Source: Octopus vulgaris
Lineage: Eukaryota
DNA length: 64,000 nt
Assembly: GCA_951406725.2 (NCBI GenBank)
Contig: OX597832.1
Location: 33,852,001 to 33,916,000, forward strand
Direction of reading: 5' to 3'
Within the stretch, counting starts at the first letter, position 1, and every line of letters begins with the position of its first letter. This document shows, in pieces, positions 14,240 to 60,128 of this stretch. Made by a program: the position numbers and the translations under genes. The notes below the pieces were generated by a model. It was given only the letters and a program-made list of their open reading frames with translations, was not told the DNA's origin and did not search any database.

Positions 14240-15152
14240 TGTGTTCTTTTTCTGTAGTTTCAGGCTCATAGCTGCGGCCATCCTGATGCACCACCGTTTT
14301 GCTTCACTGTTATTACTGAGAGCCTCCTCCAATATATGGCACTTGGTGAATAATGGAGTTTGATGTTGCTACCCTCATTTGCACCTCTTGCCGTGAGGAA
14401 GTTTCATCTGGGGCTCTCGACAGAAAAAGGTCCAGTTTTCATTTAAAACACCTGCATTTACTTTGTGCAGGTTTCTCAGGCTGTTCGGGAGAATATTAAA
14501 AAGCTGTGGGCCCCTGAAACCCAGGCTGTTGCAGAAGCTGGTCCTGAAGCGTGATGGCATTGCTGGGATTTTTTGCATTATGCAGTGTCGTCTCGTTTTG
14601 GCATTGGTGTAGCTTTCAATGCCAAAATTTGGCACAATTCCTTTCAAGATCTTCCAGATATATATTACTGCATACCTTTCCTGTCTTCTCTCCAAGGAGT
14701 AGAGACTTAACAGTTTCAACCTTTCTTAGTAGCTGAGCTGTTGCAAAAAGATGATCTTCTTTGTGAATCATCTCTGGATTGCTTCAAGGTCCGCTGTTAA
14801 TTTTACACTGGTGGGTGACCATAGCTGCGAGAAGTAATCCAGGCGGCTGAGGACGAATATCCGCCAGAGGACCATCATGGTTTCCTCATCTCTGCTTCTG
14901 AATGTTCTCAGGATCCATTCTTTCAGTCGTCTGCACTTTGTCTGCACTTTGTCCCTCACTGACTTAGGCTCTGAAATTGAAATTCCCTGTGAATCAGTGT
15001 ACTCTGTTTCATATTCAGTTTTAGACGCTGGTAGCGCAGGGCCTGGAATTTTTCAGAATTAAACTGCATATTATTATCCTCAGCCCATCTGTAAATTGAT
15101 TCCAACTCCTGCAGCAGGTGTGCAACATCGCTGGGTTTCTGTATCTCTTGCT
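14240..15152 (-). mobile_element. 5'-truncated, frameshifted CR1-like LINE (RT C-terminal half and 3' tail); same family as 51410-52765
   Basis: ORF pieces IYRWAEDNNMQFNSEKFQ, WILRTFRSRDEETMMVLW, LDYFSQLWSP, LYSLERRQERY, GPQLFNILP; tail GGTGGTGCATCAGGATGGCCGCAGCTATGAGCCTGAAACTA. Confidence 0.9.
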
Positions 15153-34977: not shown

Positions 34978-35143
34978 GGAGTGATTGAGCGGTAAGAAGC
35001 TTACTCCCTAACCACATGGTTCCTGGTTCAATCCCACTGCGTTGCACCTTGGACAAGTGTCTTCTACTGTAGCCTCGGGCCGACCAAAGCCTAGTCATTA
35101 GATTTGGTAGCCGAAAACTAAAATAAACCCGTCGTAAATATAC

Positions 35144-35179
<36 letters not shown>

Positions 35180-35390
35180 TTGCATGCGTGTACTTGTGTG
35201 TCTGTTTTTGTCCCCCACCACCATCGCTTCAAAACCGATGTTAATGTGTTTTGTCCCCGTAAATTAGAGAAGGATAGGATAAGTACTAGGCTTACAAAGA
35301 ATAAGTCCTGGACTCGATTTGTTCGCCTAAAGGCGGGGCTCCAGCATGGTTGCATTCAAATGAATAATATAATTAAAAGAATTAAAGAAT
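34978..35390 (+). mobile_element. SINE family A, near full length with internal TA/TG microsatellite
   Basis: GGTTCAATCC B-box; body matches 47483-47922; tail GGCGGGGCTCCAGCATGG and A-rich end. Confidence 0.85.
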
Positions 35391-35877: not shown

Positions 35878-36527
35878 CAGAGTGCGTAAGGTATTTGAAA
35901 ACATACGTTTTGGGAGTCATTGCTACATTTTTTGCTCATTATGTTAGCAAAAATCTTTGTTTCAGAAAATAATAATTGCAGACCCTCAGCTTACTCAAGA
36001 AATGAAGGGGCATGCTGTTATTGTGTTTATAAACGCTGAGCATAACGATTTAGAAATATCACGATTTTTTGTCAGATCTTTCGTCTACAAAGTTTGTAAG
36101 GAGCTAGAGACTGAAGATGAAAATGTATCACCAGTGTGAAAGCATAAAAAGATATTCTAAACGCTCTGAAATTATCAGAAAACCTGAATTTATCCAACAT
36201 ATTCAACAGACCATTGGACATTTTATTACACGTGGAGCGTTGTTAAGAGAGAAGTCAATGAACACGCCCATAACACGGAAGATTCTTTGAAAGCTGCCAT
36301 AGTCAGAGTAATGTCCAAAATGAACCAAGACCACTTGATTCGAGCATGGAGATGATTTAGATCTCATATAGAAGCAGCTGTTGAAGCTGAAGGTGGCTTT
36401 ATTGAATAACATTTGAGAAAAGAAGGTTTAGTTTTATCCTCATAGCATTTTTTGATAAAGTTATAATCTGTTATTATAAACTGTTATTATAAACATAAAT
36501 ATGTCCTCAAATATCTTACGCACCCTG
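35878..36527 (+). mobile_element. Internally deleted Tc1/mariner (maT-like) DNA transposon
   Basis: TIRs CAG(A/G)GTGCGTAAG(G/A)TATTTGA with TA flanks; N-terminal HAVIVFINAEHNDLEISRF and C-terminal HNTEDSLKAAIVRVMSKM...FRSHIEAAVEAEGGFIE*. Confidence 0.85.
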
Positions 36528-36680
36528 TATATGGGTAATACCGAAAGACAAACAACCCTGCACACACACGTACATACACAAAAGGAAACATATACATGAA
36601 CATATACACACACCACATACACACACACACGAGACAGAGGTAAAAATACATACATACCTACATACACTGAAGCTCACACT

Positions 36681-36815
36681 TGCGCACGAACAAACAAACA
36701 AAAAGAACGCAGCTCCGATAACGGACAGAATCAACGACTATTGAAGAGGTTGCAAGAAGCATGAAAAATTTTAGAAAAAATTAGTAAATGAGTGGGAACT
36801 GAACCGGTGAGTGTG
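36681..36815 (+). mobile_element. Short dispersed repeat with a degenerate hammerhead-like motif (36738-36774); homologous to 42012-42148
   Basis: CTA-TTGAAGA-G-GTTGC aagaa GCAT-GAAA-AAT-T-T-TAG. Confidence 0.55.
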
Positions 36816-36863
36816 AGAATTAATAACGAATTAAAACAGAATGACTCTTCCCTATATATATGT

Positions 36864-36929
36864 ATCGTCTAGTGGTTAGGACGCCACGTTGAGTCCGTGG
36901 TAACCAAGGTTCAAATCCTGGTCACGGCA
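36864..36929 (+). pseudogene. tRNA-His pseudogene (5' acceptor strand lost; anticodon loop TTGAGTC instead of TTGTGGC)
   Basis: ATCGTCTAGTGGTTAGGACGCCACG-TTGAGTC-CGTGGTAACCAAGGTTCAAATCCTGGTCACGGCA follows the invertebrate tRNA-His(GTG) sequence as I recall it; anticodon stem CCACG/CGTGG is intact. Confidence 0.85.
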
Positions 36930-36954
36930 GCCCATCTGTGTTCTTTAACTTTTA

Positions 36955-37008
36955 AAATGGCGGTGCCCCAGCATGACCACAGCTCGTGAGCTGAAACTAG
37001 ATAAAAAA
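36955..37008 (+). mobile_element. Isolated 3' tail of the CR1-like LINE family
   Basis: AAATGGCGGTGCCCCAGCATGACCACAGCTCGTGAGCTGAAACTAGA differs from 52703-52749 at 2 positions. Confidence 0.85.
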
Positions 37009-37055
37009 TTAAGATATTAATAAATATCCTCCCTCTCTTTCTCTCTCTCTCTCTC

Positions 37056-42011: not shown

Positions 42012-42148
42012 CTCACTAGTTCGATGTTCGATTTCCAATCATTTATTTCTTTTTCTCGAAATTTCGTTGCTTCTTGCAACCTCTTCAATAGTCGTTGGTC
42101 CTGTCCGTTATCGGGGCTACGTTCTTTTTGTTTGTTTGTTTGTGCGCA
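42012..42148 (-). mobile_element. Second copy of the 36681-36815 repeat, with hammerhead-like core at 42055-42091
   Basis: Minus strand CTA-TTGAAGA-G-GTTGC aagaa GCAAC-GAAA-TT-TC-GAG; perfect 5-bp stem II, stem I broken. Confidence 0.55.
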
Positions 42149-42543
42149 TGTGTGTGCGTGTGTATATGTGTATTTGTGTGGTGTGTATGTGTGTGTGTGT
42201 GTGTGTCTTGGTATACCCGGTGTATTGAAACCTAATGTTTCTGTTTGTACGGCATTACAGCAAAATTAAACTGCCAGCATCACACTGCCCGACTGTAAAA
42301 AATGTTTCTCTTCAATTTGTGTAGACTAGCGAGACCCGTGAATATTTCTCTCGTGCTAATTTTGAAGACTTTATTCAGAAACCTAGGAGCGTAGCCTGTG
42401 TCGCGTCTGCATTGGAGGATGGTCGCTCCTCCGCTATTTATTGAAAAGTGAAAGAAATTGGAATACGATGATTACTTAATGCACTTTCTATATATATATA
42501 TTGTGTGTTTCTTAAATGGCTTATAAACACCTTCCACGCTGCA

Positions 42544-47485: not shown

Positions 47486-47708
47486 TCTTTTACTCTTTTA
47501 CATGTTTCAGTCATTTGACTGCGGCCGTGCTGGAGCACCGCCTTTAATCGAGCAACTCGAACCCGGAACATATTCTTTGTAAGCCCAGTACTTATTCTAT
47601 CGGTCTTTTTTGCCGAACCGCTAGTTGACGGGGACGTAAACACACCAGCATCTGTTGTCAAGCAATGCTAGGGGGACAAACACAGACACACAGACACACA
47701 GACATACA

Positions 47709-47756
<48 letters not shown>

Positions 47757-47922
47757 TACGACAGGCTTCTTTCAGTTTCCATCTACCAAATCCACTCACA
47801 AGGCTTTGGTCGGCCCGAGGCTATAGTAGAAGACACTTGCCCAAGGTGCGACGCAGTGGGACTGAACCCGGAACCATGTGGTTGGTAAGCAAGCTACTTA
47901 CCACACAGACACTCCTGCCCCT
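47483..47922 (-). mobile_element. SINE family A, full length
   Basis: tRNA-like head with GGTTCAGTCCC, body, internal TA/TG microsatellite, tail GGCGGTGCTCCAGCACGGCCGCAGTCAAATGACTGAAAC and (GTAAAAGA)n end. Confidence 0.9.
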
Positions 47923-50154: not shown

Positions 50155-50212
50155 TTTTCTTTTTATTTCATCTAGTTTCAGCTTACGAGCTGTGGCCATG
50201 CTGGGGCACCAC
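50155..50212 (-). mobile_element. Isolated 3' tail of the CR1-like LINE family
   Basis: Reverse complement GTGGTGCCCCAGCATGGCCACAGCTCGTAAGCTGAAACTAGATGAAATAAAA. Confidence 0.8.
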
Positions 50213-50368
50213 AATGTTTACTTTTATTTAAATTCAGTCTTTCTCATTTCTTTCCCCGCTCATCTTTACCCCCACCACACACACACACAAATTATTTACT
50301 CTCCTTGCGATTACCCGTATTCTAACCCTCTATAGCTAACAAAAATTTCATCAGTATCATCATTATCT

Positions 50369-51409: not shown

Positions 51410-53317
<1,908 letters not shown>

Positions 53318-59120: not shown

Positions 59121-59624
59121 AGTTGTTTCTATGTAGTCTTGCGGTTGAATAGTTTTGGTTCGTGTCTATGTACGAAGTCATCAAATTTTACTATTAAACC
59201 ATTATTTTTTTCTCTTCATTCAACACTTATGTAGAATATATTTTCAGATTTGACTTAGATATAGCAATATCGATAACCTCGCGTTGGAACTCAGCATATG
59301 TAAACTTCATAAGAAAAGACTGAGGCAAGTACAGAGAGCAAAATGAAATTAAATAAATGAAACGACAACAGCACTTACGCAGTTACCATGTTTCTCTTGC
59401 CGCTGTTACGGCTTAAAGATGCTCGGAGATGTGTGCCTGTGCAGCATCTTATATAGCTTCCTCGGGACGTCTAAATAAAAGTGCAAGATTATTTGACTAA
59501 ATACATACATTGTTGTAATGATGTAGATTATGTAATATCTGTTCCCTTGCAATTTGTGCGTGTGTATGTACAAACACGCACGCACACACACTAACACACA
59601 CACACAAACATACACACATATATA

Positions 59625-60128
59625 CAGGGTGCGTAAGATATTTGAGGACAGATTTATGTTTATAAAAAAACAGCTATATAACATTAAATAATAACTTTAT
59701 TTATCAAAAAAATGCTATGAGGATGAAAATATACCTTTTCTATAATGTTATTCAATAAAAATATCTTCCGCTTCAACAACTGCTTTTATATGAGATCTAA
59801 ATCATCTACATGCTCGAATCAAGTGGTCTTGGATCATTTTGGACATTACTCTGACTTTGGCAGCTTTCAAAGAATCTTCCGTGTTATGGGCGTGTTCATT
59901 GACCTCTCTCTCATCAACGCTCCACATGTAATAAAAATCCCAATGGATTGAGATCTGGGGAATTAGAATGTTAGGGGTTATGTGTTAGTGAACATTTTCA
60001 GCCATTCATTCCTGTGTTACTAGAGCCATATGTGATAGTGTAGAGTCTTACTGAAACACATATGGCCTTCCATTGCACACACTGTCTATCCAGGGCTTAA
60101 CAATTATTTCCAGGAGCTTAATGTAAGC
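59625..60128 (-). mobile_element. 3' half of the same maT-like Tc1/mariner family, including the catalytic region
   Basis: TA|CAGGGTGCGTAAGATATTTGAGGACA TIR; minus strand VKPWIDSVCNGRPYVFQ*DSTLSH...NSPDLNPL..HNTEDSLKAA; spacing compatible with DD37D if a small deletion is restored. Confidence 0.85.

Follow-up and report, generated by a model that had tools for sequence, protein, structure and literature searches.

A short stretch of the Octopus vulgaris genome carries a tRNA-His-derived sequence that runs directly into the 3′ end of a LINE, which raises the question of how the two came to be joined and whether such a fusion can be the start of a SINE. It lies in a window of 64,000 nucleotides (GenBank assembly GCA_951406725.2, contig OX597832.1, positions 33,852,001 to 33,916,000 of the forward strand). 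The original prediction offered three origins: a switch made by the LINE's reverse transcriptase (RT) onto a pre-tRNA, a small tRNA-His SINE family or insertion of a LINE tail beside a tRNA gene. We searched the whole assembly, which is microsatellite-rich and comprises 2.8 Gb in 227 contigs, with the window on contig C19.

Anatomy of the tRNA-His/LINE fusion

The fusion at 36864–37001 joins a tRNA-His pseudogene without its 5′ end, a 24-nt trailer and a 47-nt LINE tail. Its parts and the A-rich end that follows are listed below, with the evidence for each in brackets.

36864–36929, +: tRNA-His(GTG)-derived sequence, tRNA positions 7–73 (Rfam; alignment to the genome's His genes)
36865–36875, +: Pol III A box (sequence; place in the tRNA alignment; fits the consensus)
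36909–36918, +: Pol III B box (sequence; place in the tRNA alignment; fits the consensus)
36930–36953, +: pre-tRNA 3′ trailer, 24 nt, with a four-T terminator at 36950–36953 (genome-wide trailer search)
36954, +: one extra A at the trailer/LINE boundary, common to three sibling copies (sequence comparison)
36955–37001, +: LINE 3′ tail, 47 nt (match to LINE end; folding prediction)
37002–37027, +: A-rich end, from the TAAAA-type terminal repeat of the tail subfamily (sequence comparison)

The head matches the Rfam tRNA model at 36864–36922 with 31.3 bits (cut-off 29), and no CCA follows the tRNA part at 36929; both results, like the two boxes, agree with the original reading of a tRNA-His-derived head. 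Over 66 nt it differs from the genome's His genes by five substitutions, where SINEBase asks for at least 60% identity over 60 nt. By comparison with the same genes the first six tRNA bases are absent, the anticodon is GAG (36891–36893) rather than GTG, and positions 37 (G37T, 36894) and 50 (non-C, 36906) are altered. With bases 1–6 gone, a GAG anticodon and a mismatch in the T stem, the copy is not a functional tRNA-His gene, and ARAGORN called no tRNA gene at the locus.

The trailer ends in TTTT as predicted, but is 24 nt long and followed by one extra A, rather than 25 nt; this A is likely non-templated. Beyond it, 36955–37001 matches the LINE end at 52703–52749 on the same strand at 45 of 47 bases (E = 6e-17), which bears out the expected tail of about 50 nt, and the A-rich end is likewise present. 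Folding predicts two adjacent hairpins in the tail (36958–36979 and 36980–36993), with the junction at the 5′ foot of the first. No clear target-site duplication was found at the locus beyond AT. A copy of a cellular RNA is joined here in sense to a LINE 3′ end, the arrangement of a chimeric retrocopy.

No empty orthologous site was found among contigs of other sequencing runs, and none listed has a joint that skips the element. Contigs from runs X1 and X3 (organisms A and C), the former possibly from the assembled sample itself, cover flank, tRNA and trailer (36732–36943) with three differences, and an X2 contig (organism B) covers 36908–36957 with zero differences. Runs X8, X9 and X13 yielded no matching contig, which does not by itself show that the element is missing from them. 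The upstream flank is part of other dispersed repeats. Two such repeat pairs occur within the window: 36619–36804 with 42026–42206 (79% identical) and 36211–36532 with 59620–59946 (87% identical).

The partner LINE and its free-standing tails

The window contains the partner LINE as well as two related features:

51410–52765 (start approximate), +: partner LINE, young as judged from its sequence; a 5′-truncated copy with RT region, 3′ UTR, tail (52703–52749) and ATCA repeats
50158–50218, −: solo tail, no LINE body upstream
14255–14938, −: older LINE relative, 71% identical, with a variant tail

The copy at 51410–52765 encodes an RVT_1 domain, and its 261-aa RT stretch is found with 100% identity at 143 other scored places, many of them in open frames of 1039 aa. 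Two natural copies of the LINE are 98.8% identical and carry the 1039-aa frame with Exo_endo_phos and RVT_1 domains. The element, which we take from motif resemblance to belong to the CR1 group, thus combines an APE endonuclease and RT in ORF2 with 3′ hairpins and ATCA or TAAAA tandem repeats; an ORF1 was looked for and none was identified. In the LINE copy, too, the tail is predicted to fold into two adjacent hairpins (z of −2.8), and the junction seen in the fusion lies 3–4 nt before the first.

A 24-nt core motif of the tail has 7,983 exact matches genome-wide. To see where LINE sequence begins in such tails, gapped alignment was applied to 99 of the first 100 listed matches, a non-random sample from the first 37 Mb of C1. 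The LINE 5′ end lies 21–25 nt before the motif (45–49 nt from the core end) in 36 of the 99 tails and 14–17 nt before it, at the foot of the inner stem, in 13. The remainder begin 18–20 nt (4/99), 0–13 nt (4/99), 26–60 nt (3/99) or more than 60 nt (39/99) before it, and a single tail begins 0–3 nt from the 3′ side of the first hairpin. The two peaks coincide with the 5′ foot of the outer stem and with that of the inner stem.

Solo tails are the commonest form, with 57 of the 99 sampled tails reaching at most 25 nt beyond the core. Many start at AT, contiguous with TA repeats of the target. They are shorter than 100 bp, so that length filters in repeat annotation would drop them. The same sample includes three tails with a U6 head and one to three with a tRNA or tRNA-like head, which would extrapolate to a few hundred chimeras genome-wide.

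The window also holds copies of an abundant tRNA-derived SINE family at 47486–47915 (−), 34978–35388 (+) and 1–263 (−). The two longer ones end in a related double-hairpin tail, which elsewhere stands alone behind U6 and His copies.

Precursor tRNAs are joined to the tail throughout the genome

A pattern combining a B box with the tail returned 82 matches genome-wide, against none in a reversed control. The association of B box and tail is not due to chance. The pattern presupposes the position of the junction, and that position is tested by the tail sample and by the U6 and His 3′-end surveys described below. The main set comprises 74 of the 82 matches, inspected and assigned by eye; four more were looked at separately. 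Of these 74, 65 are tRNAs of ten amino acids and nine have tRNA-like or other heads.

The 65 tRNA chimeras resemble precursors rather than mature tRNAs: none has a CCA, five keep an intron and 55 have a last T-run of at least three. They form 57 groups by isotype and trailer. In the six groups with a shared trailer the junctions differ in every case, often together with the tail subfamily, and 0–3 variable extra bases are found at the junctions of the 65. For tRNA-His, 22 chimeras were compared with 46 His loci, in line with the earlier proposal that trailers be held against the 3′ flanks of real His genes. A gene trailer is matched over 12–29 nt in 17 of the 22, and a match to the leader of real His genes extends over at most 16 nt in all 22; the five without a matching gene trailer are three sibling copies, including that in the window, and the loci L010 and L012. 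The separate trailers, together with these limits on leader and trailer, argue that the heads are copies of precursor RNAs that were captured separately.

The chimeras lie away from tRNA gene clusters. They have no gene flanks, and in many of them the truncation falls within the tRNA. Target duplications of at least 5 nt flank 13 of 62 chimeras compared with 9% of cross-pairs, roughly a twofold enrichment, and duplications of at least 6 nt flank 10 of 62 compared with 6%. Duplications as weak as this accord with targets in AT microsatellites and with the 1–9 bp reported for platypus U6-L2 (PMC4476161).

Among the loci L034, L155, L191, L051, L028, L154 and L190, Leu(CAA) and Lys(TTT) chimeras are seen both with an intron and without one, their trailers retained in either case, and the 5′ ends of Glu copies cluster near +10 and +24. 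One 5S rRNA copy (L302, C16:18060975; Rfam 74.7 bits) is joined by its T-run at the same tail position. Among the genes, more than 30 tRNA-His genes are clustered at C1:195.18–195.27 Mb with a spacing of about 2 kb, and many His genes (L018–L030, L136–L146) have leaders and trailers that look complementary by eye and could extend the acceptor stem of the precursor.

The stem foot behaves like an RNA 5′ end

Two surveys started from the 3′ ends of the partner RNAs and did not presuppose the tail; both search patterns end in a non-C filter, by which some loci were dropped. In the first 100 of 217 rows for U6, sorted by eye, 36 copies meet one of four related tails at its stem foot (7 of them the tail of the partner LINE), or 30 after tandem duplicates are collapsed. 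Another 39 run into the natural 5′ ends of SINEs, U6 or 5S-like RNA, 7 into internal positions, and 18 are genes or unassigned. All 74 rows were sorted for His. Of these, 45 are untailed and 17 end at the stem foot; 6 more run into the 5′ end of a SINE, 3 meet an unrelated hairpin tail at its foot, and 3 are of other kinds. Taken together, the surveys indicate that the stem foot behaves like a natural RNA 5′ end.

The joins to full-length SINE 5′ ends involve both pre-tRNA-His and U6 copies (L147, L149, L152 and L295) and at least two SINE families, and two U6 copies are joined head to tail to further U6 copies (C1:187750251 and C2:23366758). His precursors (L296 and C1:205582441) are also joined to a different hairpin tail, one that ends in GAT repeats, and again at its foot, which suggests that a second retroelement family makes equivalent His fusions.

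A three-copy lineage

The trailer of the window copy, searched with up to three mismatches, is found at exactly three places genome-wide (on C10, C18 and C19), and all three carry the tail. Each copy is about 165 bp long, and their flanks on the three contigs are unrelated apart from microsatellite. All three have T37, which is found nowhere else in the genome, and a non-C at position 50, while of 45 His genes 44 retain G37 and all 45 retain C50. The misreading of a modified base is a conceivable source of T37. They also have in common a run of four Ts, one extra A and an identical tail subfamily, which occurs in 13 of the 65 tRNA chimeras; the extra-A junction is seen in one of the 65 other chimeras and in 12 pattern rows genome-wide.

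The copies differ elsewhere. Two keep about 12 nt of leader while the window copy starts at +7, their A-rich ends differ, and they show four, four and seven private changes in 139 columns. They have diverged as far as copies of the LINE subfamily have (7.0% pairwise, n = 9), and the tails have no derived change in common. At the rate quoted in PMC13282606 this would place the lineage, as a loose figure, at about 10 million years. Four genome searches for an untailed source gene found none.

We lean towards the view that the three copies were re-copied from one chimeric master. This rests on the common trailer, the two changes that damage the tRNA, the rare junction and the fact that the searches found no untailed source. 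We hold back from a firmer statement because the tails have no common derived change, because single genes are captured repeatedly and because boundaries between T-run and A can drift. The trailer of one His gene was captured at least six separate times, and with two other His chimeras that match no gene this makes repeated capture and gene loss ordinary in this genome. The T-to-A boundaries have drifted among copies of one duplicated chimera, so that identity of the junction is an imperfect marker.

The same evidence can be read as three independent captures from a single defective His gene that has been lost or is missing from the assembly; its damaged precursor would linger unprocessed and might carry an A added by surveillance. 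To this reading, under which jumping still operates and the nascent-SINE step alone falls away, we give a substantial minority share of our belief. Repeated capture of single genes is common, two siblings kept their leader, and tails without a common derived change and an age equal to that of the LINE subfamily are what it would lead one to expect. Against it, four Ts, extra A and tail subfamily are identical in all three copies (extra A in 1/65 others, subfamily in 13/65), other groups with a shared trailer have differing junctions, and no untailed source was found genome-wide.

SINEBase defines a SINE as a short (<1 kb) interspersed repeat and applies a 100-copy criterion (PMC3531059). The three-copy lineage is a short interspersed repeat, and with three copies it falls far below 100. 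It is likely such a fusion beginning to copy itself, which we propose as the first step of a new SINE. The small tRNA-His SINE family of the original prediction thus does not stand as a family, since only three copies of head and trailer exist, but survives as a lineage of that size. An established tRNA-His SINE family is scarcely conceivable: the layout of head plus tail and the A and B boxes would suit it, yet only three copies have the head and trailer of the window copy, the other His chimeras differ in trailer and tail type, and copy number in the assembly rules it out.

Two candidate sibling families, the C27/C29 group and an 11-copy group with tRNA-like head and tail, were rejected as DNA-level duplicates on account of their shared flanks. 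In the latter (L087, L297–L299 and L303–L308), head and tail are a passenger in a larger dispersed repeat of at least 11 copies.

A model of end-to-end jumping

We consider it probable that the fusions arise by end-to-end jumping of the RT from a short tail RNA onto a U-ended pre-tRNA, and that the three siblings stem from one re-inserted chimera. What is observed comprises the anatomy of the locus, a junction point common to dozens of chimeras with tRNA, U6 or 5S heads, the accumulation of solo tails that start there, the fusions to SINE and U6 5′ ends and the three-copy clade; from these we infer five steps. (1) LINE RNA would be shortened, through trimming or a cut, as far as the first hairpin's foot, at which point protection may come from bound ORF2 protein or from the stem itself. 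(2) Target-primed reverse transcription would begin in the terminal repeat at AT-rich DNA and reach the 5′ end of the tail RNA. (3) A non-templated purine on the cDNA could then pair with the terminal 3′ U of a Pol III precursor in the nucleus. (4) Copying would run into the tRNA and stop at the leader, at +1 or inside the tRNA. (5) For the three siblings, a chimera whose A and B boxes were intact would have been transcribed through its four-T terminator and retrotransposed anew.

End-to-end jumping would be expected to give joins between a 5′ end and a 3′ U with 0–3 variable extra bases. The RT of R2 passes end to end between templates by way of a +1 overhang and is poor at adding pyrimidines (PMC8594491), from which it follows that U-ended acceptors would be favoured. 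Of the three origins in the original prediction, a template switch onto a pre-tRNA would fit the class best. Pol III may read through a four-T run, as at a leaky terminator; our literature search brought up no relevant paper on such read-through.

Insertion beside a tRNA gene is contradicted at the locus, since bases 1–6 and any gene flank are absent and the match of His chimeras to genes is confined to the stretch from at most 16 nt of leader through the U-tract. A version in which a solo tail inserted at the DNA level into the T-rich terminator of a tRNA gene, which then became the master, could draw on the abundance of solo tails (57/99 sampled), some of which lie in T-rich DNA. We regard it as very unlikely, as neither the C25 genes nor any of 32 listed His loci of the C1 cluster has a tail, and the chimeras are remote from gene clusters. 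For the class as a whole it is contradicted by the absence of gene flanks and the frequent truncation within the tRNA; for the lost master of the three siblings it keeps a low probability.

Two further readings concern how the boundary arises, and both seem improbable to about the same degree. In one, an RtcB-type ligase joins a U-ended RNA to a cleaved fragment of the LINE tail before retrotransposition. The fixed 5′ boundary would fit a site-specific cut leaving a 5′-OH, and U6 is a frequent partner. The 0–3 variable bases at the junctions, which fit non-templated addition, speak against it. Pre-tRNAs normally end in a 3′-OH and SINE RNAs start with a 5′ triphosphate, ends that are ill suited to this ligation. 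The route has been shown in human cells for U6/L1, where RtcB ligation needs a cyclic phosphate and a 5′-OH and drops with a 3′-OH or a 5′-triphosphate (PMC6789731). Among 82 chimeras of U6, 39 are joined to natural 5′ ends of Pol III RNAs, as are 6 of 28 for His, and such ends would be poor RtcB substrates if triphosphorylated. In the other reading there is no discrete short RNA: the RT stalls, the boundary reflects AT microhomology with TA-rich targets and the template switch is internal, at the pause. This would account for the many solo tails that start at AT continuous with target TA repeats. The stops, however, fall at the 5′ feet of the stems and not on the 3′ side, where the polymerase meets them; ATs farther upstream are hardly used (3/99 at 26–60 nt); chimeras use the identical point where the target offers no microhomology; and four tail sequences and one unrelated tail behave alike.

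Under end-to-end jumping, capture leaves the terminator of the precursor upstream of the tail, so that only leaky chimeras would amplify, and the position of the terminator suggests a filter on SINE birth. A broader reading would make this genome a SINE nursery. LINE RNA would be processed to a discrete, protected hairpin handle of 50–70 nt that is itself mobile, the RT would splice this handle end to end onto Pol III precursors of any kind that end in U, and hundreds of ready-made proto-SINEs would result, most of them single because their own terminator lies upstream of the tail, while the four-T His lineage leaked through and began amplifying. We put this forward tentatively, as somewhat short of an even chance. 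By the argument made for SINEU (PMC4494074), the fact that LINE tails are so abundant speaks for independent chimeras in the class as a whole.

Relation to known chimeras

The closest published cases are the platypus U6-L2 chimeras and the origin model of PittSINE (for general background, see PMC4758252 and PMC11481361). In U6-L2 and U6-Mon-1 of platypus and U6-L1, L2, RTE and AnolisSINE2 of anole, a Pol III RNA likewise stands 5′ of a short LINE or SINE 3′ piece in sense; the partner is a stringent-type LINE or its SINE, the copies are often 5′-truncated, target duplications are short, and template switching is invoked (PMC4476161). That study surveyed U6 and, in the portion available, reports no fixed junction, whereas the heads of the octopus chimeras are pre-tRNAs from many isotypes, trailers and introns included, and their LINE part has one structural start. 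For PittSINE and TguSINE1 of birds, with a tRNA head and a CR1 tail, a switch of the RT from a tail-bearing RNA to a tRNA followed by transcriptional activation has been proposed (PMC5729268). There the founding event has been deduced from families already complete, whereas the octopus genome offers dozens of one-off intermediates and one three-copy lineage.

Human tRNA/L1 chimeras also unite a tRNA and a LINE in one insertion, but the 21 loci contain mostly antisense tRNA halves attributed to twin priming (PMC11838501), unlike the sense, 3′-complete precursors seen here. In human U6/L1 chimeras formed by RtcB, the U-tract of a Pol III RNA abuts a 5′-truncated LINE with breakpoints that vary (PMC6789731); octopus partners include pre-tRNAs and full-length SINE 5′ ends. 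The R2 enzyme jumps in vitro from the 5′ end of a template to the 3′ end of another RNA by means of a non-templated overhang (PMC8594491), while the octopus partner is an APE-type LINE for which jumping is deduced from sequence.

A recent octopus repeat annotation includes U, U-L1 and many unclassified SINE families, and the portion available describes no such chimeras (PMC13282606). In the article texts covered by our literature search we found no description of fixed-junction pre-tRNA/LINE-tail chimeras; supplements, Repbase, Dfam or the repeat library of PMC13282606 may list the tail or these chimeras. What the window locus adds is a three-copy clade and truncation points mapped to both stem feet.

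The step at which a tRNA head acquires a tail is as a rule reconstructed in retrospect, from SINE families already complete, while here the intermediates can be counted and chimeras traced to individual tRNA genes through their trailers. Since the partner LINE has many intact, near-identical copies, the step is also open to assay. The copies furthermore record states of nuclear pre-tRNA processing, with the leader kept or removed, the intron kept and the trailer kept, and intact chimeras can inflate annotated tRNA gene counts.
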